Source: a virus
Taxonomy: Duplodnaviria; Caudoviricetes
IMG/VR virus record: IMGVR_UViG_3300032722_000020
Location: 1-61,263 of that record
Reading direction: 5' to 3' (one strand)
Length of the DNA: 61,263 nt
Shown here: positions 9,301 through 61,263 of the stretch, in pieces
How the letters are laid out: the number at the start of each line of letters is the position of its first letter
Position numbering within the stretch: position 1 is the stretch's first letter
Position numbers and translations under genes: made by a program
The notes under the pieces: generated by a model
Told to the model about the DNA's origin: nothing
What the model saw: only the letters and a program-made list of their open reading frames with translations
Database searches by the model: none

Positions 9301-9800
9301 ATGCCAGGAAAAGCCCGTTTCAATTCGGCGCGAATGTTCTTTGCGCCCAAGACATGCGACCGGCAACCGCTGGCGGTAGTTTGCAGGAAAGCAAATTCAA
9401 TCGCCCATTGCGCCCGCTGTGCGGCTTGCTGCTCGGCTTTGATAATCGCGGCGGCGGCTCGCTCGGCGTCAATCCTCGCTTTGTTTTCCCCCGCCGTGCG
9501 GATGGCGTCAATCAGTTCGTCCGCGCTTAAAATCCGGTTGCCCATCTGCCAGCCGGCGTGACCGTTGCTGTCCACTTCGCGCACTTGTGCATCGTGTCCA
9601 TCTTCCAAGCAAAGCGCGCGCATGGTTCCGGGCGTGGTGTAATTCGACGGAGGCAACGGGCCAAGAATAACAAACTCTTTCAGCGGGTTAGCGCGATCCT
9701 CATAAGTGATTATTTGCCCAACGGCTAAAGGCGTTGCTGGCGTTTCCATTTCCTCAACAAGCCGCCCTTGTTCGTTCAAGTTGTAAGTGGTGATTTTCAT
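6372..9800 (-). CDS. Polyvalent protein: LPD29-like domain + class I SAM methyltransferase + DUF4942-like C-terminus
   Basis: KNIRAELKRAFPGIKFSVTSDSYTGGNSIDVHW (LPD29-like); EFYPT, VLDIGAGNG, FCNPPY (amino-MTase); FKNGNLHL near the C-terminus. Confidence 0.82.
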   Translation of the reverse strand: MKITTYNLNEQGRLVEEMETPATPLAVGQIITYEDRANPLKEFVILGPLPPSNYTTPGTMRALCLEDGHDAQVREVDSNGHAGWQMGNRILSADELIDAIRTAGENKARIDAERAAAAIIKAEQQAAQRAQWAIEFAFLQTTASGCRSHVLGAKNIRAELKRAFPGIKFSVTSDSYTGGNSIDVHWQAGPTKEAVEKITGKYQEGHFDGMEDIYRDSGNQWPDIYGGAKYVMEQRSFPNELHDAIGRSLCELQGIEFAGQYTLGLLGENDDRDLQQHINQLLKLTTWPAGAEFDRVDEKEFAGEDCDTFKRLFETYGQGFYNKTEQMTPADQVAFSNYQSRQGLHWCRIVFKSNGGGNQPEAKPEPTAPTQAETVSAGSGATVKTNAEKNGIEIHFASKPAAEVLAQLKSAGWRWSRFSSCWYHKNTPENLAFANQLAGAGVPTVANIADEPVKPEEKNPSGLAEVFAETAPAFRATMRKIADESCLEVLAVFKLWQDYSAECRAGDQCPIESEFIRHKAKQIGVTVEKKPAEPLSLPEYYAQGVGKSVLDSYKAARVVDCDCPAVPLARNSEPQKRISPLVEELKQAGQDGEFYPTTNEIIDKLCRCISLKNDNDSNIYGHSSVLDIGAGNGKVLNAIKERCGIDSLHAIEKSPILCAELDKDILIVGTDFHEQSLLSKTVDVIFCNPPYSEYEIWAEKIIRQAASRNVYLVLPCRWENSQRIKDALKFRDVSARIVGKFDFADAEDRRARSVVHLIDVNMRRSDRKETYGDERGEDDAFNRFFEEQFADLINKFKASEARPAGDKAEREEYREAKRPEFSGLVVGANYPETLVGLYNAEMSKIYKNYQLCAQLDAELLKEFAIEPKTILKCLKERLNGLKNDYWMELFSNLGTITSRLTSASRKELLGRLHSHVSVDFTVSNILEVVLWVIKNANSYIDSQLIEVYENMVAKCNVTLYKSNKKTWEESGWRYGKPEVKNTHYALDYRIVTHRMGGIENRWGREELDQRAAEFIGDLRTIARNLGFDPSGDMTYSLRNLGNWRSGQTEEFFFRDKTVTTGRVGFGTLFDVKAFKNGNLHLRLNKKFILALNVEHGRLKGWLRSGEQAAEELQDKDAAQYFNGNQQISAGSPFSMLAEKTIE

Positions 9801-12865: not shown

Positions 12866-13075
12866 TTATGCCCGACGCGCACGGAGTTTGAAGCCGCAAT
12901 TCACCCCAAGTGGGGCTTGCTCCTGCTTTTTAATAATCGAAATCGCAGATTGCGGAGTTTTCGCTTCGATCAAAGCCCCGGTTGATAGCCAGATTCCACT
13001 TTGATTTTTCCGCATGGCATTGCGCTCATCGGGGGTGATATTTTTGGTTTTGTAGTAGTCAATTGAGTATTTCAT
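12866..13075 (-). CDS. Hypothetical 69-aa protein, duplicate copy A
   Basis: Near-identical to 13444-13653. Confidence 0.75.
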   Translation of the reverse strand: MKYSIDYYKTKNITPDERNAMRKNQSGIWLSTGALIEAKTPQSAISIIKKQEQAPLGVNCGFKLRARRA

Positions 13076-13113
13076 ATTATTTTCTTTGGTTGGTTTGTTT
13101 GTTGGTTATTTGG

Positions 13114-13443: not shown

Positions 13444-13653
13444 TCATGCTCTCCGCGCACGGAGTTTGAATCCGCAGTTCACCCCAAGTGGGGTTTGCTC
13501 CAGATTTTTTATAATCGAAATCGCAGATTGCGGAGTTTTCGCTTCAATCAAAGCCCCGGATGATAGCCAGATTCCACTTTGATTTTTCCGCATGGCATTG
13601 CGCTCATCGGGGGTGATATTTTTGGTTTTGTAGTAGTCAATTGAGTATTTCAT
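13444..13653 (-). CDS. Hypothetical 69-aa protein, duplicate copy B
   Basis: First gene after the island promoter; 4 aa differences from copy A. Confidence 0.75.
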   Translation of the reverse strand: MKYSIDYYKTKNITPDERNAMRKNQSGIWLSSGALIEAKTPQSAISIIKNLEQTPLGVNCGFKLRARRA

Positions 13654-13710
13654 ATTATTTTTGGTTTAGTTTTTTGTTTGTTTACAATGTTTTACTTTCA
13701 CCGTGATTTA

Positions 13711-38102: not shown

Positions 38103-38360
38103 ATGAACCTTCACGCCAATTCCATTGCCGCCTTTTCCGAGACTGCGAACGAGCGCACCAGCTTGGAAACGCGCATTCTTGAACTAATGTCCGATGGTAA
38201 TCCGCGCACTGACCGTCAGATAGCGCATGAGTTGGGACACCCGGAACCGCTACGGCCAAGAGTCACGACGCTGGTTGAAGAAGTCAAGCTACACGAAGTC
38301 GGTTCAACGAAATGCGAATAGACACACAAGCGCGTCAGATTAACCCGGCGTTTTATTTAA
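38103..38360 (+). pseudogene. Winged-helix protein with internal TAG at 38319-38321
   Basis: TDRQIAHELG..RPRVTTL..EVGSTKCE*THKRV; the frame continues to the TAA inside the first attC box. Confidence 0.55.
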
Positions 38361-38471
38361 CGTCCCTGCTGAGCCAAGCCGGAACGGGAACGCCCGAAAA
38401 ACAAAATGAAGCGACTACCGGCTTTGGCTCCGGCAGGTGGTTAGACCCAGCGAATAACGACAAACAACAAT

Positions 38472-38864
38472 ATGACACCGACACAAACAGTGGCTACGAA
38501 TGAGCGACAATCTGCTATCCTGCCAAACGGTAATAAAATAATAGACTCCGCAATCGCCAGACAGCTTGCCTTGGATTTAGAGGAATGTGGGAAAGCCCTA
38601 AACGCAATGTCGCTTCGGTGTGAAAGGCTTCTGGACGAACGCGCAGAAGCCTATGAGACAATAAACACCCTGCACAATCTTTGCCTGTCTGCTGAAAAGC
38701 GCGCTCTTAAAAAACGTGATGAAGAAATCGCGCAGATAAAAAACGAGCTGCAATACCTCGTCGAAGTCTGCGAAACCAACTTAGAAACAAAAGACTGGCC
38801 GCGATTCAAATATGCCAAACGCATCGCCGCTGGGTCTAACGACAAGCTGACACACGCCGAATGA
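38472..38864 (+). CDS. Cassette hypothetical coiled-coil protein
   Basis: 130 aa; reads through the AAC box into the next attC. Confidence 0.7.
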   Translation: MTPTQTVATNERQSAILPNGNKIIDSAIARQLALDLEECGKALNAMSLRCERLLDERAEAYETINTLHNLCLSAEKRALKKRDEEIAQIKNELQYLVEVCETNLETKDWPRFKYAKRIAAGSNDKLTHAE

Positions 38865-39742
38865 AAAACCATAAAACAACCAGCGACCGAAGCGAACAAC
38901 CGAGCGCGCCCAACGGCGTTGTGTCCAGCGATTTGTTAGACCCCATTTCAATAATCTCGCTAGGTGCGGGTGTCCAAAGCTCGACAATGGCACTGATGGC
39001 AGCGAGGGGCGAAATCGCGCCTATGCCCAAATATGCCATCTTTTCTGATGTCGGCGCAGAACCAAAGAATGTGTATGACTACCTCGACTATCTGGAAAAG
39101 CTGCTGCCGTTTCCTGTGCTGCGCGTGATGCACAAAGACGGGCTGACGAAAGCCATTGAAAAATCTCTAAAGTCTGGGTCTATCTCTGGAAGTCCGCCGT
39201 GGTTCAGTGCTGGCAAGGATGGAAAAGCCGTGCTGCTATCGCGTGCCTGCACGCATGACTTCAAAATACACCCGATACAACAAGCTATCCGGCGACTGAC
39301 GGGTGCTAAGCGTGGAAGCAAGAAAACTCACGCCGTGCTGTGGATAGGCATATCAACTGACGAAGCGCAGCGAATCAAAGACAGCCGCTATCCGCACTAC
39401 ATCCACCGCCATCCTCTAATCGAAAAGGGCATGAGCAGAAACAACTGTCTGGCATGGATGGAACGGAATGGCTACCAGCAACCGCCTAAATCTTCGTGCG
39501 TGTATTGCCCGTTTCACTCTAACCCGCACTGGCGGCAAATCAAAGACACAGACCCGGCTGGATGGGCGGAAGCTGTGCGCGTGGACAATCTCATCCGAGA
39601 CGGTGTGCGGCGGAATGGAAAGCCGCCAATGTATGCTCACCGCTCACTAAAACCACTAAACGAAATAGACCTGACAACTGACCTCGACCGTGGCCAAGAA
39701 CTACTCTGGGGAAACGAGTGTGAGGGGATGTGTGGGGTCTAA
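38861..39742 (+). CDS. PAPS reductase / PP-loop family protein (cassette)
   Basis: SLGAGVQSS, DVGAE, CTHDFKI, IGISTDE, PPKSSCVYCPF, ECEGMCGV. Confidence 0.85.
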   Translation: MKNHKTTSDRSEQPSAPNGVVSSDLLDPISIISLGAGVQSSTMALMAARGEIAPMPKYAIFSDVGAEPKNVYDYLDYLEKLLPFPVLRVMHKDGLTKAIEKSLKSGSISGSPPWFSAGKDGKAVLLSRACTHDFKIHPIQQAIRRLTGAKRGSKKTHAVLWIGISTDEAQRIKDSRYPHYIHRHPLIEKGMSRNNCLAWMERNGYQQPPKSSCVYCPFHSNPHWRQIKDTDPAGWAEAVRVDNLIRDGVRRNGKPPMYAHRSLKPLNEIDLTTDLDRGQELLWGNECEGMCGV

Positions 39743-39774
39743 CGTGGGCGCTGAGCCGCCCCGGAAAGAAAACC

Positions 39775-40362
39775 ATGAATGAACCAAAGACCGAAGCGAT
39801 AAACGACACGCGCCAACCGGGGTTGGCTCCAGCAACTTGTTATGCTTCCCTGCCGCCAATCCTGGACGCTTGTTGTGGAGGCCGGCAATTCTGGTTCGAC
39901 AAGGAAAACCCGAACGTGCTTTTTGCTGACTGCCGCGTGATGCCTGACAAGGTGGTCGGGAGCGGCAAGGATGCCCGCACGCGCCGCTGCCTGCCGGATC
40001 GTGTCCACGACTTCCGCGCAATGGAATATCCCGACGAGACTTTTCAAATGGTCGTGTTCGACCCGCCGCATCTATTCCTCGGCGAGAATAGCTTCATGGC
40101 TCAAAGCTACGGGCGGCTGGACCGCGAAACGTGGCGCGATGATTTGAGCCGTGGCTTCGCCGAGTGCTTCCGAGTCTTGAAGCCCGGCGGCGTGCTTATC
40201 TTCAAGTGGAATGAATGCGACGTGCCACTTGCGGAAATTCTAAAACTCACGCCGCACAAACCGCTGTTCGGTCATCCGAGCGGCAAAGCACAGAAAACGC
40301 ACTGGTGCGCGTTCTGGAAGCATAACGCTCCGGCTCACCGGCCGGCGCGAGAACAAGAATAA
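39775..40362 (+). CDS. SAM-dependent (DNA adenine) methyltransferase (cassette)
   Basis: ILDACCGGRQFW, VVFDPPHL, ECFRVLKPGGVLIFKW. Confidence 0.88.
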   Translation: MNEPKTEAINDTRQPGLAPATCYASLPPILDACCGGRQFWFDKENPNVLFADCRVMPDKVVGSGKDARTRRCLPDRVHDFRAMEYPDETFQMVVFDPPHLFLGENSFMAQSYGRLDRETWRDDLSRGFAECFRVLKPGGVLIFKWNECDVPLAEILKLTPHKPLFGHPSGKAQKTHWCAFWKHNAPAHRPAREQE

Positions 40363-40366
40363 CGCT

Positions 40367-40645
40367 ATGACTACTCAATCAACGTCCGAACAGCCAGCGC
40401 CCGCGCCGGTTCGCGTGCAGCCGGTGGTTAGAGCGCGATACCGTGTCTCTGACTGGATAAACACCAACACCATGCAGCCGGTCTTCGGCATCCAACACAA
40501 CAAGGAGCGGGGCAAGTGGGTGAACTGTGCGGTGGACGGCACGGCGCTGCTCTACACTAAACGCGAAACCGCCGAGAGACACTGCCGCTGGCTGAATGAC
40601 CCGAAAGGCACTGCGCCGGAATGGTCACAAGACTCAGCGCTCTAA
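40367..40645 (+). CDS. Cassette hypothetical protein
   Basis: Starts inside attC; its stop codon is the TAA of the terminal TCTAAC. Confidence 0.7.
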   Translation: MTTQSTSEQPAPAPVRVQPVVRARYRVSDWINTNTMQPVFGIQHNKERGKWVNCAVDGTALLYTKRETAERHCRWLNDPKGTAPEWSQDSAL

Positions 40646-40679
40646 CAGTTAATTCAATCAACAGAGTTGCTATTATCAC
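40640..40679 (-). other. Putative attI
   Basis: Minus strand ...TTGAATTAACTG|TTAGAGC directly 5' of intI, with no attC hairpin following. Confidence 0.65.
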
Positions 40680-41663
40680 ATGGGGCTTATCCAAAAACTG
40701 AACGATGCGATGATTGAGCAAAGCCTTGCGCGCTCAACTATGCAAGGCTACCGCTTTTGGAATCGCAAGTTCTATGGCTATGTGAAGAAACCGGCGAGCC
40801 AATGGCAAGGTGGCGATGTAAAGGCATTTTTACTGTGGTTGTATGCTGAAAATTATTCACCGGTTTCGCGCAAGCAGGCTTTGAATGCGCTGGCTTTTAC
40901 ATTCAAGCACGTTCTCATGGCAGACATGGGTAATTTGGAACTGCCGCCCATGCCGAAGGTGACTCAGACCAACCGGATTTTGCCATCGCCGGATGATTTG
41001 CAGCGCATTTTTGCCCTAATGAACGGTATGCCTAAAACAATGGCGCAACTGATGGCCGGATCTGGCCTGCGCGTGGCAGAGTGTTGCAAGCTGCGGGTGC
41101 AAGACGTGGACATTGAAGCCCGCACGATTCGCGTTTGGTTTGGAAAAAATGACAAGTGCCGGCGAACGATCATTCCTGATTCTCTGGTGCCGAAATTGCA
41201 GCGGCACCTGGCATTGCGAAAGGCACTGCATGACCGCGATCTAGCCGATGGACGCGGCTTGGTGGTTTTGCCGGGACGGCTGGCTAACAAATACCAGCAG
41301 GCTAACCAGGAATTTCGGCAGCAATGGTTTTTTCCGTCCACGAAGTTTCGCGGGCAGTATCGTTGGCACGCGGTTCCTGAATGTTTAGGAAAACCAATGC
41401 GCCGGGCTGTAAAGGCGGCGGGAATATTGAAGCACCTTACCCCGCATTGCCTGCGCCATTTCTTCATCACTTACAGTCAGCGCGTCGGAAATGACCTGAA
41501 AACAGTGATGGAATGGGCCGGTCATCAGAACCCAGAAACAACGATGATTTACACACACCCGGACGCGGCGAACGGGGTTAGTCCGTTGGATTATATGGTT
41601 GCCAGAACAATCATTACAACCCACCCGATGACACCAAGGCGGATTGAATTTCACCACGCATAA
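40680..41663 (+). CDS. intI: Integron integrase-type tyrosine recombinase
   Basis: Catalytic R-K-H-R-H-Y intact (GLRV, GKND, HCLRH, AGH, MIYTH). IntI-specific insertion HDRDLADGRGLVVLPGRLANKY..QWFFPS; N-terminal QALNAL. Confidence 0.92.
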   Translation: MGLIQKLNDAMIEQSLARSTMQGYRFWNRKFYGYVKKPASQWQGGDVKAFLLWLYAENYSPVSRKQALNALAFTFKHVLMADMGNLELPPMPKVTQTNRILPSPDDLQRIFALMNGMPKTMAQLMAGSGLRVAECCKLRVQDVDIEARTIRVWFGKNDKCRRTIIPDSLVPKLQRHLALRKALHDRDLADGRGLVVLPGRLANKYQQANQEFRQQWFFPSTKFRGQYRWHAVPECLGKPMRRAVKAAGILKHLTPHCLRHFFITYSQRVGNDLKTVMEWAGHQNPETTMIYTHPDAANGVSPLDYMVARTIITTHPMTPRRIEFHHA

Positions 41664-41697
41664 ATGTCCACAATCCAGACAGATTTATTTGCTACGC

Positions 41698-42066
41698 ATG
41701 AATCTTCCGATTCCATCACCAACCCTAGCTCGACTTAACCCGCACTTATTTAGCAGTGGTCAGTCCGTTGCTAGTTGCAGCGAACCAGTTACCCGCGAAA
41801 GTGACTTGCATGAATCCATCTTTGCCGAATGTCGGAAACGCGGTTGGATAGTGTTGCACGGTTCTATGTCAGAACGGACGCATCGCACGGCTGGCGAACC
41901 GGATTTTGTGATTCTGGCTAATGCGGGACGGTTGATGTTAGTGGAATGTAAGTCGCGCGGCGGTAAGTTATCGCCAACGCAAAGCGCGATGAAGGCGCAC
42001 GCGGAGAAGTTAGGCCATACGGTTCACGTTGTCAGGAGCATGGATGAATTTTTTAAGATTTTATGA
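41698..42066 (+). CDS. VRR-NUC domain nuclease
   Basis: GEPDF..VECK..GKLSPTQ..VVRS. Confidence 0.88.
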   Translation: MNLPIPSPTLARLNPHLFSSGQSVASCSEPVTRESDLHESIFAECRKRGWIVLHGSMSERTHRTAGEPDFVILANAGRLMLVECKSRGGKLSPTQSAMKAHAEKLGHTVHVVRSMDEFFKIL

Positions 42067-42138
42067 GTGAAAACAAAATGACGATGTTCATTTTTGAAAT
42101 TTACAGTAACTAAACCAACCGAAACCAAAAACAAAAAT

Positions 42139-42948
42139 ATGACAACTGCCATTGCAACTACATCAAAACCAAAAACCGAAACCAAGCCAAACGCGCTCGT
42201 AAGCCTCGCCGCTCGCCTGCAAGTTGATCCCGCCCGCCTGCAAACCATCTTGAAATCTACTGTGTTTGCCAAGGCTAATGATGATGAGTTCGCCGCGCTC
42301 GTTATTGTCTGCCAAGAGTATCGGCTCAATCCACTGCTCAAAGAGATTTACGCATTTCCCGCAAAGGGCGGCGGCATCTGCCCGATTGTCAGCGTTGACG
42401 GTTGGAACAAAATGCTCATCACGCACCCGGAATTTGATGGCATTGAATATGTTCGTGGGGATGATTCCGAAGGCAATCTTCAATCCTGCACCGCGACGGT
42501 CTTTATGAAGAACCGTTCGCATCCGATGGTCATTACCGAATACCTGTCCGAGTGCAAGCGGAATACCGAGCCGTGGAATCAAATGCCGTGGCGGATGCTT
42601 CGTAACCGCACCACCTGTCAGGCCGCGCGCATGGCCTTTGGTTTCTCTGGGGTCTATAATGAAGATGAAGCCAAGACCATCACCGTCGAGTCAACGGTGA
42701 TTCCCAACGAACCGCCGCCGAAGATTATTGCTGCGCCGGCTACGACCACGGCACAAGCCGAACTGGAAGCACTTATCACCGGAGAAGGTTACACCTTTGA
42801 CCATCTGCAAAAGTTCGGGATTGAAACTGGAAACATTGCGAATGCTGATAGCATCGGCGGATTCGATGAAATCAGCACGGACGACGCCAAGCGGTTGCTC
42901 AAAGCTAAGACTGGTTTGTTGAACGGTTTGAAGGCGATTAAGGGATAA
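42139..42948 (+). CDS. bet: Red-beta/RecT-family single-strand annealing protein
   Basis: YRLNPLLKEIYAFP..PIVSVDGW..PW...MLR..QAARMAFGFSGVYNEDE. Confidence 0.92.
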   Translation: MTTAIATTSKPKTETKPNALVSLAARLQVDPARLQTILKSTVFAKANDDEFAALVIVCQEYRLNPLLKEIYAFPAKGGGICPIVSVDGWNKMLITHPEFDGIEYVRGDDSEGNLQSCTATVFMKNRSHPMVITEYLSECKRNTEPWNQMPWRMLRNRTTCQAARMAFGFSGVYNEDEAKTITVESTVIPNEPPPKIIAAPATTTAQAELEALITGEGYTFDHLQKFGIETGNIANADSIGGFDEISTDDAKRLLKAKTGLLNGLKAIKG

Positions 42949-43026
42949 AATCTTACCACAAAAACCGTGAACGCCTGCGGAGAAAGTAATAGGCGTGACA
43001 GCCGGAGAGACGGCAACCAATTTTTT

Positions 43027-43953
43027 ATGAGCGAATCACTAATCATCATGCCGTTGGAAAAGCTGCCGGTGGCGCAAATCGCACCCATCGCAATCCATTT
43101 GCGCGACGAGGCTCTGGCTTCATCCGCACTGATTGGTAAGGTGGAAAACGCCGAGCAGAACAATAAATGTTCCGCCGCCCGCAAGCAAATCAAAGGGCTG
43201 CTATCGCTGTTTGAATCCCAGCGCAAAAAGTTAAAAGAACCAATCTTGGAAGCGGGACGCTACTTGGATCGAATCGTTGCGACTGAATCCGAGGACTTGA
43301 AACGTGAAGATGGCCGGCTGGAAAACTTGGAAAAAGATTTTATCCGTGCCGAACTGCGTCGGAAATCCGAGGAAGAAGAATTGCAGCGCAAGGAACTCGC
43401 CCGTATCGAAGCCGAGAAGCAAGCCGAACTGCTCCGTATCGCCCGCGAGCAGGCGGCGCGCGAGGAAGAAGCGCGACGGGTTGCCGCCGAAGCTGAACGC
43501 ATTGCCAGCGAGGAGCGCGAGGCCGCTGAAAAGCTGGCACGGGAGGCAACCAACAAGAAACAGCGTGAAGCCGCCGAAGCTGCCCGCATCGAGGCCGAGA
43601 AGCGCGCCGAAGCCGCCCGTATTGAGGCCGAACGGATTGCAGAGCTTGCTGCCGAAACCGCCCGCCAGCAAGCACAGTTGGCCGTAGAACGCGCCGAAAC
43701 CGCAACCTATGTCGAATCGCGCCCGGTCGAGATAACACGCGCGAAAGGGCAGTCCGTTCGCAAGGAGTGGGTGATTGAACAAATTAACGACTTTCAACTG
43801 ATGAAGGCGCGGCCCGACCTAGTTCGGAAGGTGGAATGGGATATGGTTGGTTTGAAACAGGCATTAGCCGCTGGTGAGAAGTTGCCCGGTGTCCGCGCCC
43901 GTGAAGATATATCCATTGGAACTCGCGCGGGAAAGGCGCTGATTGAAGTCTAA
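43027..43953 (+). CDS. Coiled-coil recombination-module protein
   Basis: RKKLKEPILE, long E/A/R coiled coil, C-terminal LPGVR. Confidence 0.65.
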   Translation: MSESLIIMPLEKLPVAQIAPIAIHLRDEALASSALIGKVENAEQNNKCSAARKQIKGLLSLFESQRKKLKEPILEAGRYLDRIVATESEDLKREDGRLENLEKDFIRAELRRKSEEEELQRKELARIEAEKQAELLRIAREQAAREEEARRVAAEAERIASEEREAAEKLAREATNKKQREAAEAARIEAEKRAEAARIEAERIAELAAETARQQAQLAVERAETATYVESRPVEITRAKGQSVRKEWVIEQINDFQLMKARPDLVRKVEWDMVGLKQALAAGEKLPGVRAREDISIGTRAGKALIEV

Positions 43954-43957
43954 TCCC

Positions 43958-44188
43958 ATGACCATCAAGACCCACATCGAATTAGAAGTGGAAGTAGCGT
44001 TCGACTATGTAAAAGAAGAACGCGAAACCCGTAACTGCCCCGGATCGCCGGAGAGTATTGAAATTACTTCCGTCACCATTTTACAAAACGGGGCGGAATT
44101 GACGTTGACACCACAACAGTCATATCAGGTCGAAACCGATTTCTGGGATGCGTTGGAAAAGATGAGGAAAGAACCAGTTGAACCATGA
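43958..44188 (+). CDS. Hypothetical acidic protein
   Basis: 76-aa ORF containing CPGSPESIEITSV. Confidence 0.65.
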   Translation: MTIKTHIELEVEVAFDYVKEERETRNCPGSPESIEITSVTILQNGAELTLTPQQSYQVETDFWDALEKMRKEPVEP

Positions 44189-44228
44189 ATTTTAACCGAC
44201 AAAACATAATGCACAAGGAGGCTTCAAT

Positions 44229-44894
44229 ATGAAGCCAGACGCCTTTATGCCGCTTTACGGCGACGACTTCATCAGCGCGGTAAAGATGCTGCCAAAGGAT
44301 GTCAAATGGATTTACCTTGAATGCTGCTGGCATTACTGGTCGCACACGCATTGCGAAGGATTGCCCGATGACGATTCCCTGTTACAGGAACTGTCACAGG
44401 TTCAGTTACCAGATGTGTGGCGCAGGGTGAAACAGCTTGTGTTCGACAACGACAAGTTCTTTGTTTTGGACGGCGGCAAGTGGCATCAAAAGCGTTGCCG
44501 CGAGCTATATCTAACAGCTAAAGAGGCTTACGCCAAAAAGGTTCGCCAAACATCCGCTGCTAGGGCTGCTGTTACAAAGACTGTTACAGGCTCTGTTACA
44601 GTCCGCAAACTAAAACCAGAACCAGAGTTAATAGAAGATAAGACTAATGGGCTTCGCCCAATAGCTTTCAATGGAAGGCTTTCACCGATACAGGCCGCAA
44701 CCGCCACCAGATTCGCTTCTGTGCTTGGATGTCAATGGGATCAAGGAAATGGAAGAAAATGGATGAAGCGGTGCAGAGACGAAAGAATTAGGGCAGAGCG
44801 AGTCATTAGCGAAGTGGAAAATGCAATTAAGGAAAACCGGGTTAAAACCACGCCCGCGCAATACGCGGAGCAGATTTGGAAGGAGTTTGTATGA
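44229..44894 (+). CDS. Replication initiator-like protein (YdaU/DUF1376)
   Basis: FMPLYGDDF..Y....HYW..GLPDDD..WHQKR. Confidence 0.8.
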   Translation: MKPDAFMPLYGDDFISAVKMLPKDVKWIYLECCWHYWSHTHCEGLPDDDSLLQELSQVQLPDVWRRVKQLVFDNDKFFVLDGGKWHQKRCRELYLTAKEAYAKKVRQTSAARAAVTKTVTGSVTVRKLKPEPELIEDKTNGLRPIAFNGRLSPIQAATATRFASVLGCQWDQGNGRKWMKRCRDERIRAERVISEVENAIKENRVKTTPAQYAEQIWKEFV

Positions 44895-45079
44895 GAAAAA
44901 TGACGCAAGATCAAATGGAACTTTTCAAAAAAGTATGTTTGCAGAAAAACCATGAGCAGTTTTAGGCGGCTTGTGAATCAGTAAAAGAAAACGGTGAATA
45001 TCCTATTGATTGGTTTTCAATCGTCCGACAGTCAGGCATGGCTGACTTCTACTACAAAAACAAATTTTCAGAGCTATAA
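44891..45079 (+). pseudogene. Small ORF interrupted by TAG at 44963-44965
   Basis: ATGA-coupled start; frame stays open after the TAG until the TAA before the next gene. Confidence 0.45.
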
Positions 45080-45091
45080 AACAACAACCTT

Positions 45092-45319
45092 ATGATCATC
45101 ACCAACAAACCAAACCTTCATTGCCCGAACTGCTCCAACAAGTTGCGATGGTGGCACGCTACCAAGATGCAGGACGACGAGAGCATTGTTGTTGTGCATC
45201 GTGATTGCAGACTGACAGCCGCACGGTGCAAGTATGTTCGCAACGTGGTGCTTGCGATAGTGCTAGGGCTGGCTAGTGCTGGCGCGGCGGTGATGTTCGG
45301 ACATTTGGCGAGTAAATAA
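45092..45319 (+). CDS. Small Zn-finger membrane protein
   Basis: CPNC..HRDC plus C-terminal TM segment. Confidence 0.6.
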   Translation: MIITNKPNLHCPNCSNKLRWWHATKMQDDESIVVVHRDCRLTAARCKYVRNVVLAIVLGLASAGAAVMFGHLASK

Positions 45320-45330
45320 AAAATAAAAAT

Positions 45331-45507
45331 ATGACTGAACCAATCAAACTCCGGCGTCCGGCGAAATATCTGCACACCGGCAAACATGACTATGATGACG
45401 GCTTCCGAGTCGGAAGCAACTGCGCCAAACGCCGCACTATCCGTGCCTTCAAGCGCGGGCAACGTCGTGAAAGTCTCAAATACATGACTCAAGACGAAGT
45501 GGCCTAA
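45331..45507 (+). CDS. Small basic protein ending in an attC box
   Basis: 58 aa; stop codon within AGTGGCCTAAA. Confidence 0.55.
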   Translation: MTEPIKLRRPAKYLHTGKHDYDDGFRVGSNCAKRRTIRAFKRGQRRESLKYMTQDEVA

Positions 45508-45540
45508 AGCTCCGCATTAGCGACCGCCGACCAAAACGCT

Positions 45541-45774
45541 ATGATTGCAACTGAGACGCCCAACGGCGGTTCACTCGATGCGGTTGTTAGGCATACACCG
45601 TGGACACAAGATGAAGATGATATGCTGCGCTACTGGTATGGGTGCGCGAATGGCGCAATGACCCCATACCGGCACATGGCTGAATATCTGAACAAACACT
45701 TTCACGGCGGCAAACCAATCCGAAAAGTCGGTGCAATAGCTCGCCGCGACGGAAAAATAAACTACGGCAAATGA
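45541..45774 (+). CDS. Myb/SANT-like HTH small protein (cassette)
   Basis: PWTQDEDDMLR..MAEYLN..R; starts inside attC. Confidence 0.65.
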   Translation: MIATETPNGGSLDAVVRHTPWTQDEDDMLRYWYGCANGAMTPYRHMAEYLNKHFHGGKPIRKVGAIARRDGKINYGK

Positions 45775-46049
45775 AATACATAATCGAAACTGGAAATGAC
45801 GGAGGCGCGGCCTCGGTAGTGGGATGGACTCACGACTTCGGAAGTGCCTGCAATGAAGTGGCGCGGATAGTCGGGATTGACTGCTATGTGAAAATCCAGC
45901 CAATCAATCGCGGCAAAAACGGCGCGATATGGAACTTCGTCCATGACGGAAAAACAAAGTGGCTGCGCGTGCTTAAAATGCCCGCTGCCGAAACCTACGG
46001 CGCGATGGATGTATGTTCGCCCGTTCGAGACGCATCGCTGTATGCCTAA
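45771..46049 (+). CDS. Cassette hypothetical protein
   Basis: Second gene of the same cassette; stop codon within GCCTAAC. Confidence 0.65.
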   Translation: MKYIIETGNDGGAASVVGWTHDFGSACNEVARIVGIDCYVKIQPINRGKNGAIWNFVHDGKTKWLRVLKMPAAETYGAMDVCSPVRDASLYA

Positions 46050-46176
46050 CGTAGAAAGCTGAGCCACCCGCGACCTATGACATCCGCCAACCAGAAACCT
46101 TCTCGGTCAACTGACAGCGCCAACGCGGGTTGGCTCCGGCGACTTTTTAGGCCACTGGTATAACTGAAACAAAAAT

Positions 46177-46539
46177 ATGGGATACATATCTGAAACAATC
46201 GGCAATCTGGAACACGAGCAACGGACGGCAAACAAGCTGGCCGACGCGATAGCCCTGCTGCGCGAACTCGAATGGTCGGGATGCGTGAACACCGAAATAC
46301 TCGCGGTGAACACCTGCCCGTGCTGCTACAACTGGAAACCAACAAGCGGTGACGATGATTTCTGGAAAGGCCGCGAACTGCGGAAAGGACACACGCCGGA
46401 CTGCAAGCTTGCCGATTTGCTGAAAGCATCTAACGCGGACATCAGGCGCGGCGACGTGAACCGCGACAGCGGAACAGCAAGCGCCAACGGCGGTTGGCTC
46501 CGGCGACTGGTTAGGCATAGCGATATAAAATCTAAATAA
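46177..46539 (+). CDS. Cassette hypothetical protein (Cys/His motif)
   Basis: LEWSG..CPCC..GHTPDC; reads through the next attC. Confidence 0.65.
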   Translation: MGYISETIGNLEHEQRTANKLADAIALLRELEWSGCVNTEILAVNTCPCCYNWKPTSGDDDFWKGRELRKGHTPDCKLADLLKASNADIRRGDVNRDSGTASANGGWLRRLVRHSDIKSK

Positions 46540-46540
46540 A

Positions 46541-46777
46541 ATGAAAACCGAAACCAAACGAACCGACAAGGAACGCGAGCAACAAGCTGCGACTCCCGAC
46601 AAACCGCGCTCGGCATATCTTGCGCGTAAATTCTTTCCGCACCTCGGCGAATATCACGGACAAGCCTTGGTCGAACAACTAATCCGCGCCGCCGCTATGC
46701 CTAACGAAAAAGCTGACCTACCGCCGACCGGGGCGCGTCAGCCGCGTAGCGGAACTGAAGGCGGTAACGGAGGTTAG
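46541..46777 (+). CDS. Cassette hypothetical protein
   Basis: 78 aa; ends inside attC. Confidence 0.55.
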   Translation: MKTETKRTDKEREQQAATPDKPRSAYLARKFFPHLGEYHGQALVEQLIRAAAMPNEKADLPPTGARQPRSGTEGGNGG

Positions 46778-46820
46778 GTCCGGCGCTTTTTTAGCTGAAC
46801 GTCAAAAAAAACAGAAAATT

Positions 46821-47254: not shown

Positions 47255-47503
47255 ATGTCCAAACTCAAAAAATATATGGCAAAAAATAAAACAAGCAACA
47301 GACACGAAAATCAGCAACATCCCAAATGGGAATATATGATTAACGACTTGGCGTTCCTGAACACTGAAAAGGAAACCATCCTGAACCTTCTTGGCCAAGA
47401 TGGATGGGAAGCCGTCGGATTTACCGGCAATGGCTCGGTGCTTCTAAAAAGGAAAGCATCTAAACGTAGAAAGCTGATCCACCGCCGACTAAAATCTAAC
47501 TAA
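47255..47503 (+). CDS. DUF4177-like protein (cassette)
   Basis: KWEY...LNLLGQDGWEAVG...LLKR. Confidence 0.7.
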   Translation: MSKLKKYMAKNKTSNRHENQQHPKWEYMINDLAFLNTEKETILNLLGQDGWEAVGFTGNGSVLLKRKASKRRKLIHRRLKSN

Positions 47504-48406: not shown

Positions 48407-48610
48407 ATGAACAAACCTATGGCAAAAACAAAATGCAAATCGTGCGGCGTAAAATGGACAGACCACAAGGGCATCCAGCCTACCTGCGCCGCGCTTCAAG
48501 TCGCCATCAAAGCCCTTGAACAAATCTCGGTCATGCCAAGGAATCGGCGGGCGCGGCATCTGGCAATCGGCGCACGCTCGTTTATCGAAACGCAATTATT
48601 TCAGCAATGA
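48407..48610 (+). CDS. Hypothetical protein
   Basis: CKSC..HKGIQPTC. Confidence 0.6.
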   Translation: MNKPMAKTKCKSCGVKWTDHKGIQPTCAALQVAIKALEQISVMPRNRRARHLAIGARSFIETQLFQQ

Positions 48611-52682: not shown

Positions 52683-53045
52683 ATGAAAGAAATAATAGAA
52701 ATCTTGAACGAACTCGCGGGAGAAATCCACGAGCTAAACCATAAGTGGTGGCACGATAAAAACGGCCAACCGCTGCAACGCAACAAGGGCGAACTGCTCT
52801 GCCTCATGCACTCGGAAATCTCCGAGGCGATGGAAGGCGAGCGGAAAGACCTGATGGATGACAAGCTGCCGCATCGCAAAATGGCAGAGGTGGAACTGGC
52901 CGACGCGCTCATCCGAATCTTAGACTACGCCGCAGGATTCAACTACGACATCGGCGGAGCAGTCTTTGAAAAACTGCAATACAACGCCACGCGGCAAGAC
53001 CACACGCACGAAGCGCGCGAACAAGCCAACGGCAAGAAATGGTAA
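52683..53045 (+). CDS. MazG-like NTP pyrophosphohydrolase
   Basis: LCLMHSEISEAMEGERK..EVELADALIRILD..EKLQYN..R. Confidence 0.88.
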   Translation: MKEIIEILNELAGEIHELNHKWWHDKNGQPLQRNKGELLCLMHSEISEAMEGERKDLMDDKLPHRKMAEVELADALIRILDYAAGFNYDIGGAVFEKLQYNATRQDHTHEAREQANGKKW

Positions 53046-53269
53046 CTAACGAAAAAAGATGAGCCACCGGCAACCCACGACTATGCAAACCAATAACTCT
53101 TGCGAATTACTGAAAGCCCAGACAAATCGCTGATCTAAAAGCTGAAAATGCCGAACTGCGCCGACACCTAGCCGACGCGGTAAAATCGGTGCTAGAAATC
53201 CGCGACTTGCTCGACCCTGACGGAAATCTGTGCGTCAAAGACGCCGCCGTAAAACTGAAAGCTAAAATC

Positions 53270-53614
53270 ATGGAAACAACACTAGAAAAACCAAGTGCCG
53301 CCGCAAATGCCAGCGACAAGGCGGATTCGCCTGCGATGCCTTGTTCGGAGAAAAAACCAGTGATAATCCGTGGCCGTGCAATATGCCACGGGGCTGACCT
53401 TCGGTGGTCTAGCCTGCCAATCATAAACCTTCCGCCCAACACAATCAAAGTTCGTCGGCGCATCAGAAATGATCGCTTCGCATCGGTGTTCGTAAAAACA
53501 AAAACCGAAGTCCAACACTGGAGGCTCTGTCCAGTAGGAGATAAATTCAATGGTGTAACCGAACTCTATCTCGACCTACTGCAAGGGGTGAACGCCTTTT
53601 CTCCGAACAGTTGA
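53270..53614 (+). CDS. Cassette hypothetical protein
   Basis: Start lies in an attC remnant. Confidence 0.5.
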   Translation: METTLEKPSAAANASDKADSPAMPCSEKKPVIIRGRAICHGADLRWSSLPIINLPPNTIKVRRRIRNDRFASVFVKTKTEVQHWRLCPVGDKFNGVTELYLDLLQGVNAFSPNS

Positions 53615-58631: not shown

Positions 58632-58997
58632 GTGAATCCGTTTTCACAGCATACGGCGTTGCAATGTGAATATGAGAATTTCACCGGCGGCGGGACATCG
58701 TTGGCGACGCTGACTTTCACAACCACGGTCCCGCAGATGACAGTTCCGGCCACACACACCGAAGTTGCCGGCGAAGTTGTTTTGGTGATGGGTGGCTTGT
58801 CCCCCAAAACAATGGTCAACTGTTGCGAAGTCCGCATTTCAACCTTGGGGAATTATGTTCCCCAAAAAGGCCATAAATGCACACTGCTGTTAAATCCGAC
58901 GGCAGTTCCAACCCGATTGCAAATATGGTCGGTCAACACGCTGCCCGGCGGCGAGATTTACCGATTTATCCTGGCGGACGAAAATTATAGCGCGTGA
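58632..58997 (+). CDS. Putative head-closure (FII-like) protein
   Basis: 121 aa beta-rich protein in the head module. Confidence 0.45.
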   Translation: MNPFSQHTALQCEYENFTGGGTSLATLTFTTTVPQMTVPATHTEVAGEVVLVMGGLSPKTMVNCCEVRISTLGNYVPQKGHKCTLLLNPTAVPTRLQIWSVNTLPGGEIYRFILADENYSA

Positions 58998-59092
58998 TTT
59001 TGGCGGGGCGGGTGCGGCAATGTTGCAATCTACTAGCATTGCGGCGTGAAGCATCCGCCTTGCCGCCTTGGTTTGACTTGCGGGCGTTTCAA

Positions 59093-61263
59093 ATGAGTGC
59101 CACCGCCGCTGATACCACCGAAGCCAAAGAAAAAACGCCCGCCGTTGAACCAACGGCAGCGTCTCACCAACCCGCAGAAGTCAAACCGCCGGTGGAAATG
59201 GAGCGGAGCGGCGACAACCTGCTTTACCGCTACACCGACGTTGCCAGTGGTGACGTTATCGGCGAGGACACCTTTCAAATCGCAGCCGCTTCCGAGTTTC
59301 CAGGGCAGCAGATTTGCGATGAAATCCACGCGCGTCTTGGTATTGCAAAAGAAGGCGAACTTTACACCGAAATCTTGAGCCACAACGAAGGCGATGCCGA
59401 CCTTTCTTTTTTCAACACTGGCCGCGCCGCGTTTTTGGACGAACACAAGACCAACCGGCATCTTGGCAACATCAAAAAAGCCACTCTTTCCAAAGACAAA
59501 GTGACGCGCGTTTTGGTGCAATGCGATGAGGTTTCAAAACTTTCCAAGACCCGCAAAAAACAACTCGGCAAAAAAAGCCGGATGAATGTTTCTTGCGGTT
59601 ACATCCACACCAAGTATCTCGGCGCACAGAAGTTGGACGACGGAACGATTGGACACCGCTTCGCATGGCAAGGCCGCGAAGTTTCCAGCGTGGGCGATCC
59701 GCTCGACCCGACGGTTGGATTGCAGCGCGCGGCGGCGGTGGACAAGACGTGCTGCTTTGGTTGCGGCAAGCAGATGAAAAGCGTGGACATGATTAAATCC
59801 GACGACGCGCTTTATTGCAGCCAGGATTGCATTGACGCCGAAACCCCGGCGGAAGAAGAAGCCGAGCGCAAGGGCGGAGAGAAAATGTTTCGTTCCAAAA
59901 AGGACGCCAAGGAAATCCGAATCTCGCACGCGGATCTGAAACGCAAGGTAGTCACTGCGCTGGAAACCGACAAGCGGTTCAAACACAAGCGGGACAACGG
60001 CGACATGGTTTCTGATTTTTACCACCACGACAACCATCAGGTGAGTTCGGACGGGACAGATTTTCAAGCCATCGTTTCATCCCCGGCGTGGCGCGATGGC
60101 AGAAAACTTTACGCGGTGGATTTTAGTTACGACGGCGAGAATGTGACGCTCGGCGAAGCCACCCATGTTGAGCCAAAAACCACGCTTGAAGCCGTCGAGC
60201 GCGGCGTCCCATGCGACCTGAAACAATTCCGCGCAGTTGACTCCACAAATTTATCGAAAGCGGAAATTAACGCACCAAACATCATATCCAGAAAATTTAT
60301 GGCCGACAAAACACCAGAACAAATCGCTGCCGAAACCATCGCGCAGAAACCCGAACTCGTCGTTGACAGTCTGGCGACGCCCCACGTCCAGCGCAAGCTG
60401 ACTGAACTTGGCTACCGTTCCAAAGTGGAGTTGGAAGCCGCCGCGAACACGAGCAAGGCCAATCTCGCCGCACGCAACAACGAAATCACCGCGCTCGAAA
60501 CCGAGTTCTCCCGCGATTTTGGTTCGCGCATCGCCTACCGCAAACTATCCGACGGAAAGAAAGAGCCGGTTTATCTGCGCGATGCCATCCACATCGCCGC
60601 GATGGAAGCCTGCGCGCACGACGAATCCAAGCCGGCCACTGAAATCCGACAGATTTTCCGCAGCAAAGTGGACGATTTGAAGCGTGATTCCGTTTCCGAG
60701 GAAAACATCAAGCGCAGCATTGACGCCGCCGAAGTTGGTTTGGCTGGCCGTTGCGATGACGTTTTCTCCGTCATCAAACGCACACTCGCTGACGCGCATT
60801 CCAAAGGTGTTCAAACCCGGAGTCTAATGCCGACCGGCGCGGAACTGGAATACTCAGATGAAGTTCGCGGCCATTTCAAATCCATGCCCGGTTGCTCGCA
60901 CATCGCCGATCTCGGCGGTTTCATGTCGCCCCCGAAACAGGGTCGCAAGTTTGAAGGCAAGATGGTTCGAGGCGGCGCTTCCGCCCGCCGGATGCAGCGT
61001 GACGCGCTCGCTTCCGATTTCGGCACGGTTGGCGCGATGATTGCGCCGGAGTTCCGACCCTACATCGAACTGCTCCGAAATTCGACGGTGCTGGATAAGC
61101 TCGGCTGCACCTACATCGGCGGCTGCAATGGCGAACAGGTTTTCCCGCGTCAGGACGCGGCCACGGTTGCGCAGTCGGTCGCGGAAGGTTCACAGTTAAA
61201 TCCCTACGACCAGACCCTCGGCCAGATCAAGATGACGCCCAAGCGCGTGGGTTCCCGCCAGTA
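59093..61263 (+). CDS. Prohead protease-scaffold-major capsid fusion, N-terminal part (open to window end; about 923 aa when joined)
   Basis: Manual translation: EILSH..ADLS..FLDEH..HLG..NVSCGY..W.GREVSSVGDPLDPTVG (HK97-type protease); same frame as the capsid sequence at 60668. Confidence 0.88.
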   Translation, partial: MSATAADTTEAKEKTPAVEPTAASHQPAEVKPPVEMERSGDNLLYRYTDVASGDVIGEDTFQIAAASEFPGQQICDEIHARLGIAKEGELYTEILSHNEGDADLSFFNTGRAAFLDEHKTNRHLGNIKKATLSKDKVTRVLVQCDEVSKLSKTRKKQLGKKSRMNVSCGYIHTKYLGAQKLDDGTIGHRFAWQGREVSSVGDPLDPTVGLQRAAAVDKTCCFGCGKQMKSVDMIKSDDALYCSQDCIDAETPAEEEAERKGGEKMFRSKKDAKEIRISHADLKRKVVTALETDKRFKHKRDNGDMVSDFYHHDNHQVSSDGTDFQAIVSSPAWRDGRKLYAVDFSYDGENVTLGEATHVEPKTTLEAVERGVPCDLKQFRAVDSTNLSKAEINAPNIISRKFMADKTPEQIAAETIAQKPELVVDSLATPHVQRKLTELGYRSKVELEAAANTSKANLAARNNEITALETEFSRDFGSRIAYRKLSDGKKEPVYLRDAIHIAAMEACAHDESKPATEIRQIFRSKVDDLKRDSVSEENIKRSIDAAEVGLAGRCDDVFSVIKRTLADAHSKGVQTRSLMPTGAELEYSDEVRGHFKSMPGCSHIADLGGFMSPPKQGRKFEGKMVRGGASARRMQRDALASDFGTVGAMIAPEFRPYIELLRNSTVLDKLGCTYIGGCNGEQVFPRQDAATVAQSVAEGSQLNPYDQTLGQIKMTPKRVGSRQ
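60633..61263. repeat. Imperfect terminal direct repeat, copy 2
   Basis: Matches positions 1-631. Confidence 0.97.

Follow-up and report, generated by a model that had tools for sequence, protein, structure and literature searches.

Predicted start codons in the attC loop and bottom-strand coding of cassettes in a phage integron of an attC family common in Verrucomicrobiota

Background

Integron cassettes are assumed to be promoterless genes, each followed by its attC site and expressed from a promoter of the integron platform, with translation limited by the position in the array and by the attC hairpins. A contribution of integron sites to translation has been reported: ORF-11, ORF-17 and ORF-18 in attI1 and short open reading frames (ORFs) within attC aid the translation of the downstream cassette by opening the stem-loop, and the fusion of the ORF-18 and OXA-1 leaders to aac(6')-Ib indicates that site-encoded N-termini can be tolerated (PMC8876359). 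Synthetic attC sites embedded in coding sequence were described to work as hairpin and protein code at the same time (Nivina et al. 2020, PMC7439510). In reverse integrons, for example that of Treponema denticola, intI and attC are located on the same strand (PMC4909258, PMC13323075). Concerning phages, Qi et al. (2023, PMC9892861) found integrons or clusters of attC sites lacking an integrase (CALINs) in 21 of 10,705 phages and noted DNA methyltransferases as cargo; phage attC sites were recombined by IntI1, and the complete phage integrons were either fragments of a host or mosaics of class 1. Here we analyze the linear IMG/VR virus record IMGVR_UViG_3300032722_000020 (61,263 bases, CheckV completeness 83%), in the following called the window, which carries an integron integrase gene, an attI-like region and eight attC-like elements. 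We propose that its cassettes are coded on the bottom strand of their attC sites and that several of them start translation inside the attC loop.

The phage integrons of Qi et al. likewise combine IntI, attI, attC and cassettes, and the abstract and sections 2.1 and 3.4 of that paper make no mention of bottom-strand cassettes or of ORFs starting inside attC. The short ORFs described for attI1 and attC belong to a site owned by the platform or by the upstream cassette and act in a position-dependent manner (PMC8876359), whereas the phage attC would be the 5' end of the cassette itself, and the enzyme is read from the loop in 22 of 55 elements. The sites of Nivina et al. (2020) are engineered linkers and lacZ segments; the phage case is natural, N-terminal and includes the start codon. 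As reported for reverse integrons (PMC4909258, PMC13323075), intI and the cassette ORFs of the phage point the same way, but unlike in these integrons the top strand of the phage attC runs opposite to intI and attI is located at the 5' end of intI, as in the regular type. Thus, relative to a regular integron, only the ORFs inside the cassettes are turned. Our literature searches on phage integrons, attC start codons, integrons of Verrucomicrobia and cassettes of opposite orientation listed no description of bottom-strand-coded arrays or attC-loop starts.

The attC elements and their family

The elements of the window were defined by arm profiles built from the repeats and by direct reading, which resulted in eight attC hairpins (E1 to E8), all in the sense of the + strand (Table 1); a stricter hairpin scan of the window recovered two of them. 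The common layout is a YYTAAC box (R''), an unpaired spacer, a bulged stem, a variable A-rich loop, the return stem and a GTTRRRY box (R'). E2, for example, folds with the R box, a 5x5 spacer and a stem whose 3' arm contains two bulges. Five of the eight elements give a full attC fold as single-stranded DNA and E3 does so as RNA only, while neither DNA nor RNA folding yielded a full attC fold for E7 and E8. RNA folding gave stable hairpins for the elements (-30 to -40 kcal/mol), in which the variable terminal region contains the ATG. For E7 there is no hairpin fold at all (z = 0.09), and we regard this element as a probable fossil by which two cassettes are fused.

With the 3' arm motif as query, 16 stretches were found in 13 IMG/VR records. 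From the window and 12 related records a family of 55 elements with lengths of 89-132 nucleotides was compiled, compared to about 57-140 nucleotides for attC sites in general, and related arrays are present in three complete records with terminal repeats (G001, G002 and G003). The core boxes of the family are inverted (RYYYAAC/GTTRRRY), the spacer is unpaired with about 7 x 5 nucleotides, and a 6-bp stem GAGCCA/TGGCTC is flanked by extra bases. Covariation of the inner stem was analyzed for the 35 elements carrying both anchors, GAGCCA and TGGCTC: 21 sequence variants occur, all six pairs are formed in 27 of the 35, and the mean pairing of 5.66, compared to 3.44 with shuffled partners, was reached in none of 2000 shuffles. 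The bulged base is a T in all 35. Complementarity connects the R' box of an element with the R'' box of its successor; it is perfect in 27 of 39 neighbour pairs versus 11 of 39 own pairs, and 19 of the 23 informative pairs favour the next element over the own one. Neighbour matches average 6.49 as against 5.78 by random pairing (0 of 2000 shuffles reach the observed value), and even rare variants co-vary (GTTATGC with GCATAAC, GTTAAGC with GCTTAAC, GTTGGGC with GCCCAAC). Such complementary ends from R' to the following R'' are a hallmark of cassette arrays. The data support the assignment of the elements as putative attC sites beside an integron integrase.

Integron integrase and attI-like region

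The integrase encoded next to the array was compared with the NCBIfam model TIGR02249, which it matches over its full length (1-313 of 315) with 223.7 bits. This is below the curated cut-off of 265, yet TIGR02249 is the best family by far, with only 87 bits for XerC. The closest solved structure is VchIntIA (2A3V, E 2.4e-45), to which the match is full-length, and the identity to IntI1 amounts to 37%. The segment LPGRLANKYQQANQEFRQQWFFPS aligns with the additional stretch that in IntI-type tyrosine recombinases lies between patches II and III, both in VchIntIA and in IntI1, and Xer structures match the protein only up to residue ~184. The motifs GSGLRVAEC, HCLRHFF, GHQN and MIYTH align with the same motifs in 2A3V and IntI1; we take them to contain the catalytic Arg, His-x-x-Arg, His and Tyr, respectively.

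The lone box CTCTAAC upstream of intI is complementary to the R' box of E4. A lone YCTAAC-AGT(T/A)AA box about 33 nucleotides before the ATG of intI was found in all three phage records bearing IntI, namely the window, G007 (IntI 50% identical) and G010 (42% identical), and in the window and G007 it is complementary to the R' box of the last attC. These relatives were obtained via attC-bearing records; the window IntI as single query found no relative among viral contigs. No IntI homologue was detected in G001-G006 and G008, of which G004-G006 and G008 are incomplete records, and in G009, also incomplete, the match is marginal (E 8.8e-4). The complete records G001, G002 and G003 carry 1 to 9 attC sites of this family without an IntI homologue; these phages would need an integrase provided by the host or by co-infection.

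Coding polarity and cassette boundaries

The bottom strand of an attC is marked by extrahelical bases, the first usually a G and the last a conserved T, with a 6-bp stem between them (Nivina 2016, PMC5027507). On the + strand of the phage the AAC triplet is located on the 5' arm and the extra bases (CG opposite T, TGGCTC, T) on the opposite 3' arm, so that by the rule of that paper the + strand is the bottom strand. As a control, the class 1 attC sites of aadA2, gcuF and dfrA12 show the mirror layout on the coding strand in three of three cases. The cassettes of the window hence differ from the canonical arrangement, in which the coding strand is the attC top strand, and also from an integron with inverted integrase: the minus strand represents the top strand of attC, and intI is encoded on the + strand with attI at its 5' side. 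In the arrays of the window, homology and a codon-usage score back every tested + strand ORF and none of the tested minus strand ORFs.

An independent reference for the strands is provided by bacterial metagenome-assembled genomes (MAGs) with arrays of the same attC family. In ten MAG loci with 95 cassettes, the longest open frame is found on the strand opposite to the phage sense in 70 cassettes, and on this strand an ATG follows 8-15 nucleotides after GTTAGGC. The host cassettes are therefore canonical, and the host arrays fix which strand counts as top. In all four host loci with intI, the array precedes the 5' end of this gene and is oriented to it as in the phage, and a lone GCCTAAC-AG box precedes intI by 150-250 nucleotides.

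The boundaries of the mobile unit can be read from cassettes in different contexts. A methyltransferase cassette, whose protein is 74% identical to that of the window, is 100% identical in the IMG/VR records L199-L202, in a block that reaches from just past TAAC across the attC and the ORF to ATATAAC. The flanks of this block are unrelated: upstream, L202 differs, and downstream, L199/L200, L201 and L202 differ from one another. In G010, one 33-nucleotide cassette end is present twice, joined once to an attC and once to attI-like sequence, and the identity stops directly after TAAC. Together with the other genomic evidence, these breakpoints indicate a mobile unit consisting of attC and then ORF, with both breakpoints in AAC boxes. 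Our data thus support that the phage coding strand is the attC bottom strand and that each attC precedes its own ORF, with a predicted crossover at TAA↓C.

A 67-amino-acid gene at 48407-48610 has a DNA copy of 92% identity in G004 (reverse strand, ~42633-42820). It is located between attC sites in G004 and has no attC on either side in the window, and thus exists in two settings, as cassette cargo and as a normal gene of a phage. This pair was considered as a polarity marker and rejected, as its homology ends short of both sites.

Start codons in the attC loop

The preliminary description of this DNA had proposed that attC sites double as translation-start modules and as coding sequence, with ORFs that begin in the A-rich loop and cross the GTT box in three different frames. 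The sequence and the ORF listing bear this out for the ORFs 38861, 39775, 40367 and 45541. Their ATGs are situated 27-47 nucleotides inside E2-E5, and translation would cross the 3' arm and the GTT box as TTG-TTA-GAC (frame a), as xGT-TAT-GCx (frame b) or as GTT-AGA and GTT-AGG. The short peptide listed at 46077 is also real, but the ATG at 53270, named as a further case, does not lie within a complete attC: only the 5' arm at 53044-53081 and a degenerate stretch ending with GTTCGGA (~53343-53349) are present, and a profile scan near 53270 revealed no attC 3' arm. Homologue alignments, which cover the PAPS-reductase-like protein, the methyltransferase and ORF77, show that 1-9 codons separate the GTT box from the conserved cores and that none of these codons is an ATG, GTG or TTG. 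By homology, the dual role of the attC is supported, and the four ORFs need a start inside the element.

The match of the PAPS-reductase-like protein to PHROG 424 comprises residues 30-293, and in 15 of the 15 phage homologues listed the alignment starts with residue 35. The N-termini of three annotated homologues are 9-13 residues ahead of this residue, i.e. inside the R' box, and a start at the first ATG after R' would delete the SLGAGVQSS motif. For the methyltransferase, about 24 amino acids of the leader are attC-encoded; the leader extends 27 amino acids ahead of the conserved core, and a 12-amino-acid C-terminal tail is derived from E4. The TAT variant in the R' box of E3 removes a TAG that would otherwise be met in this frame. 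Among 20 aligned of 7978 relatives, 13 have their N-terminus 2-6 residues ahead of ILDACCGG and their C-terminus at F(M/W)K. In the methyltransferase cassettes of other phages, R' is located 2-4 codons before the core and a complementary R'' at the stop codon (GTTCGGC/GCCGAAC, GTTAGGT/ACCTAAC, GTTAGAA/TTCTAAC, GTTATAT/ATATAAC). Two relatives of ORF77, 84-95% identical in the core, read the leader in another frame of the attC arm, and in all three proteins there is no start between leader and core. Relatives of ORF92 retain the leader. The 114-amino-acid metagenome protein P0127 carries the identical 22-amino-acid attC-encoded leader of ORF92 followed by unrelated sequence; the same attC type accordingly sits before a different gene.

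A loop ATG occurs in 36 of the 55 phage attC sites, compared to 20.3 +/- 3.3 in 1000 loop shuffles (maximum 31). In attC sites of the same family from bacterial MAGs, a sample dominated by one 98-nucleotide type, it was found in 21 of 137 (Fisher p = 2.7e-11), an enrichment of about tenfold in the phages. Of the 53 elements for which a downstream ORF was scored, 22 have the loop ATG as the start of the longest one, and initiation at a loop ATG is predicted for four of the eight cassettes of the window. In the other 31 elements the main ATG follows R', typically at +20 to +28 nucleotides, and 14 of these 31 contain an upstream ORF (uORF) in the loop that encodes 11-31 amino acids and ends between -2 and +27 of the R' end. 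The R' variants TAT, TGG and TCG are found where the ORF frame would otherwise hit TAG, and the next R'' compensates. The A-rich leaders of other genes in the phage show no clear Shine-Dalgarno motif. From these sequence patterns we infer that the loop ATGs are probably used as start codons.

Dependence on neighbouring cassettes

The preliminary description had further suggested that protein tails and translational coupling depend on cassette order, so that shuffling could retune expression and tails. In principle, the tails and the coupling do depend on it. ORFs 38472, 39775 and 46541, as proposed, and likewise 46177 and 47249 read through the AAC box of the next element, and the stop codon TGA of ORF 38472 overlaps the start codon of ORF 38861 as ATGA (38861-38864). 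Among nine cassette ORFs abutting a downstream box, four stop at the TAA of the box (38861, within R'' of E3; 40367; 45331; 45771), whereas five run past TAA↓C into the attC of the next cassette: 38472 by 8 codons, 39775 by 12, 46541 by 24, while 46177 extends across all of the degenerate E7 and 47249 across a remnant. Start codons and N-terminal leaders, in contrast, travel with the cassette. With a crossover at TAA↓C they would belong to the cassette they serve, so that shuffling would leave them unchanged and no frame match would be needed.

Relation to host integrons and signs of mobility

At least 120 stretches with the 3' arm motif are present in genomes of bacteria, the majority in Verrucomicrobiota MAGs, with up to 14 copies per 8 kb. 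Sedentary chromosomal integrons of Verrucomicrobiota (L050, L071, L091, L096, L191-L194) have the attC family in common with the phage, the 98-99-nucleotide type being nearly letter-identical, and share the position and orientation of the array relative to intI as well as the lone attI-type box YCTAAC-AG. Their IntI proteins are 35-41% identical to that of the window. However, in host cassettes the top strand is the coding one and the ORF is followed by its attC (70 of 95), whereas phage cassettes code on the bottom strand; a loop ATG in the phage sense is rare in host attC sites (21 of 137); and the attI-to-intI distance is 150-250 nucleotides in hosts versus 33 in the phage. Four of ten intI matches in five host MAGs hold one in-frame TAG or TGA (G012:C5, G015:C13, G014:C60, G012:C10), and several host integron integrases may be pseudogenes. 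The same attC family was found, in arrays or as single copies, on MAG contigs labelled 'uncultured Bifidobacteriaceae' from co-assembly bins (L051, L061, L087, L098, L104, L108, L110, L119, L127). This label clashes with the Verrucomicrobiota labels of most holders and is possibly the result of mis-binning.

Contigs from four metagenome DNA runs were inspected for rearranged forms; they are fragmentary, and only the covered parts of the region were interpreted. One contig (X5, depth 3.2, shorter side 30 letters) joins 40321 to 40642. This joint removes exactly E4 and ORF92, between two AAC boxes, and gives a weak hint of an excised form. Joints of 46066/46068 to 46451 and nearby positions were rejected as deletions, as they derive from other, abundant attC sites of 99 nucleotides. 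At 46427-46727 the summed contig depth is 560-2280 in three of the four runs (67 in X3), with flanks in single or double figures. The 99-nucleotide, E7-like attC type is very abundant in these lake metagenomes, presumably in chromosomal integrons of hosts.

Features of the window

The coordinates of the array and of its cassette ORFs are compiled in Table 1. Genes with Pfam or PHROG matches to phage functions flank the array on both sides (portal, TerL-like, RecT, VRR-NUC, DUF1376), and the + strand carries nearly all genes from ~36 kb onward. No Pfam match was obtained for ORF 38472-38864, and a Pfam search with ten extra proteins (eight small cassette proteins and two upstream ORFs) gave no match for nine and a sub-threshold match for one. 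An Rfam scan of the whole window revealed no family at gathering score and no family matching the attC elements, and a tRNA scan of the window found none.

Table 1. Features of the cassette array in the window (nt, nucleotides; aa, amino acids; LLR, log-likelihood ratio)
Feature	Position	Strand	Remarks
attC E1	38355-38446	+	ATTTAAC...GTTAGAC; distal end of array 1
12-aa loop uORF in E1	38406-38444	+	ends within R' box
cassette ORF, 130 aa	38472-38864	+	own ATG 25 nt after R' of E1; codon LLR +12.8
attC E2	38834-38941	+	GTCTAAC...GTTAGAC; RNA fold z = -5.7
PAPS-reductase-like ORF, 293 aa	38861-39742	+	ATG in E2 loop (27 nt in); leader 27 aa
attC E3	39737-39845	+	GTCTAAC...GTTATGC
S-adenosylmethionine (SAM)-dependent methyltransferase ORF, 195 aa	39775-40362	+	ATG in E3 loop (38 nt in)
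attC E4	40320-40433	+	GCATAAC...GTTAGAG; R'' complementary to R' of E3
ORF92, 92 aa	40367-40645	+	ATG in E4 loop (47 nt in); stop TAA in attI-side box
attI-like region	40640-40679	+	lone box CTCTAAC (40640-40646), then AGTTAATT; 33 nt before intI ATG
integron integrase IntI, 327 aa	40680-41663	+	TIGR02249, 2A3V, IntI1 comparison
attC E5	45502-45592	+	GCCTAAA...GTTAGGC; first element, second cluster
ORF77, 77 aa	45541-45774	+	ATG in E5 loop (39 nt in); core PWTQDEDD 1-2 codons after R'
attC E6	46044-46152	+	GCCTAAC...TTTAGGC
28-aa loop uORF in E6	46077-46163	+	ends 14 nt before main ATG 46177
cassette ORF, 120 aa	46177-46539	+	own ATG 24 nt after R' of E6; spans whole E7
attC E7	46428-46516	+	R'' box, loop, 3' arm of common 99-nt type; 5' L arm lost
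cassette ORF, 78 aa	46541-46777	+	reads 24 codons into E8
attC E8	46699-46796	+	GCCTAAC...TTTAGCT
attC remnant, 5' arm only	47459-47500	+	arm-profile scan
attC remnant, 5' arm only	53044-53081	+	degenerate 3'-arm-like stretch near 53320-53349

Outside the array, the record ends 1-631 and 60633-61263 are identical in 587 of 631 positions without gaps, and both are located inside a large ORF (3-1232 and 58994-61261). They could represent a diverged terminal repeat, two co-assembled strains or a tandem copy. A direct repeat of 216 nucleotides (12868-13083 and 13446-13661, 95% identical, 578 nucleotides apart) sits in an AT-richer stretch that separates the minus-strand from the plus-strand gene block. 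The two giant minus-strand ORFs 6372-9800 (1142 amino acids) and 9906-12797 (963 amino acids) have mixed PHROG matches, to methyltransferase and primase-like proteins and to processivity-factor, RusA-like and polymerase proteins, respectively, and look like unusual fusions.

Discussion

Taken together, we regard it as probable that the window carries a phage integron with an attC family of Verrucomicrobiota, bottom-strand cassettes and loop ATG starts, a reading built on element anatomy, polarity, cassette boundaries and homology limits that the comparisons demonstrate. The integron would comprise IntI and an attI-like core 33 nucleotides upstream of its gene; an array of four cassettes would adjoin immediately upstream, and a second cluster of attC sites is located 4 kb downstream. 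The mobile unit in mRNA sense would be 5'-C, the attC hairpin, the ORF and RYYYAA-3'. As the hairpin would stand directly before its own gene, the start codon would be carried by the unpaired, A-rich, variable loop. A ribosome initiating at the loop ATG would translate the 3' arm and the R' box, by which the enzyme core would gain an attC-encoded leader of 17-27 amino acids. In other cassettes a loop uORF of 11-31 amino acids would end near a separate ATG 20-28 nucleotides after R', or the loop would lack an ATG.

Several observations weigh against this reading, and we discuss them with the explanations that they would favour. Canonical polarity is the rule in all described integrons; applied here, each attC would belong to the upstream ORF, the crossover would be at G↓TT, and start and leader would come from the preceding cassette, so that expression after shuffling would depend on matching frames. 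Of the indirect marks of a bottom strand, G:T pairs and folding energy (Nivina 2016, PMC5027507), neither favours the + strand, where G:T pairs are fewer (-0.73 per site) and folding energy is not lower (+0.28 kcal/mol, not significant). The purine richness of the elements equals that of flanking coding DNA, and the longest-open-frame test within phage arrays gives only 20 versus 13 for the + strand. G002 and G008 share an identical upstream ORF and near-identical attC loops (2 mismatches in ~85 nucleotides), with a BLAST match extending to 2 nucleotides before the R' end; alone, this similarity would fit canonical polarity. The leader of ORF92 on another protein, P0127, also has to be explained, in our reading by attC types common to several cassettes. 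However, G002/G008 is the only near-identical flank pair in the DNA comparison within this attC family and is ambiguous: identity drops sharply, exactly after TAAC, and five of six spacer letters differ. Nine element pairs have upstream ORFs with similar ends, and in seven of these pairs the loops that come next are not similar. Canonical polarity would moreover put the extrahelical bases on the wrong arm, and it conflicts with host arrays of the same attC family that code on the other strand and with the array position at the attI or 5' side of intI in three of three phage records and four of four host loci. In L199-L202 the ORF moves together with its upstream attC but not with the downstream one, and the duplicated cassette end in G010 breaks at TAAC. 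We consider canonical polarity very improbable.

With the same polarity, the true start might be a TTG or GTG in the 3' arm or a near-cognate codon after R', the loop ORFs being untranslated or serving as leaders that open the hairpin. An in-frame TTG is indeed present in the conserved 3' arm for frames a and b, and in E4 a GTG stands just before GTT, so that in E2, E3 and E4 the loop ATG is not the sole possible start within the attC. The TTG at 38933-38935 would start the PAPS-reductase-like protein 10 residues before the core, similar to its annotated homologues (9-13); further candidates are the TTG at 39823 in E3 and the GTG at 40424-40426 in E4. For one relative (P0015/L198) the gene call begins at a TTG of the 3' arm, the relatives L199-L203 have an ATG overlapping R', and loop uORFs end near a separate start in 14 of 31 cassettes. 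Short ORFs within attC are reported to help the downstream cassette (PMC8876359). The argument from R' variants is partly circular, because an ORF can be called through R' only if there is no stop, and the sequencing runs searched included no RNA run containing the region. On the other hand, ORF77 in E5 offers no ATG, GTG or TTG from the loop ATG to the conserved core, loop ATGs are enriched about tenfold over host attC sites, and the frame from the loop ATG stays open in 22 cassettes. Starts in the arm would be buried in a stable RNA stem, whereas loop ATGs are in the variable terminal part. An arm or near-cognate start therefore appears unlikely to us, though clearly less so than canonical polarity. 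Finally, the cassettes could be relics that were once acquired, either from a host integron or through illegitimate recombination, and are now immobile in the phage; ORFs would have drifted into the elements, and the hairpins would matter at most as RNA structures. E7 is degenerate and has lost its 5' arm, which makes a part of the array fossil, two or three remnants exist, three complete array-bearing phage genomes (G001-G003) lack IntI, and the metagenome contigs yielded no firm joined or excised form. Against this, IntI is intact with aligned catalytic residues, the chain of R' and R'' boxes is retained together with its rare co-varying variants, identical cassettes are found in different contexts of related phages (L199-L202), a cassette end is duplicated at attI in G010, and the low-depth contig lacking E4 and ORF92 points weakly in the same direction. 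We hardly believe in relics, and we infer from the genomic comparisons that the array may be recombined today.

Tentatively, and with somewhat less than even confidence, we extend the proposal of loop starts and bottom-strand cassettes as follows. Phages of Verrucomicrobiota could own a 'backward' cassette pool, in which the attC would be a portable 5' initiation module with a loop start and no Shine-Dalgarno sequence. Promoterless genes inserted by the phage or host IntI into a phage operon would be expressed at once; the sites would be shared with the host integron and kept apart by polarity, and the exchange would concern DNA-modification and candidate counter-defence genes.

The expression problem of cassettes would here be solved in reverse, with the hairpin before the gene, the start codon in the loop and expression signals that travel with the cassette. 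That a phage lineage and its presumed hosts share an attC family with opposite coding polarity provides a concrete route of gene flow between phage genomes and chromosomal integrons. It is also a possible means for phages to shuffle methyltransferases and PAPS-reductase-like DNA-modification genes. The elements would be natural attC sites that double as coding sequence, which was previously shown with designed sites only, and the phage attC sites are testable substrates for the strand choice of IntI. These findings are of clear interest to the biology of integrons and phages.

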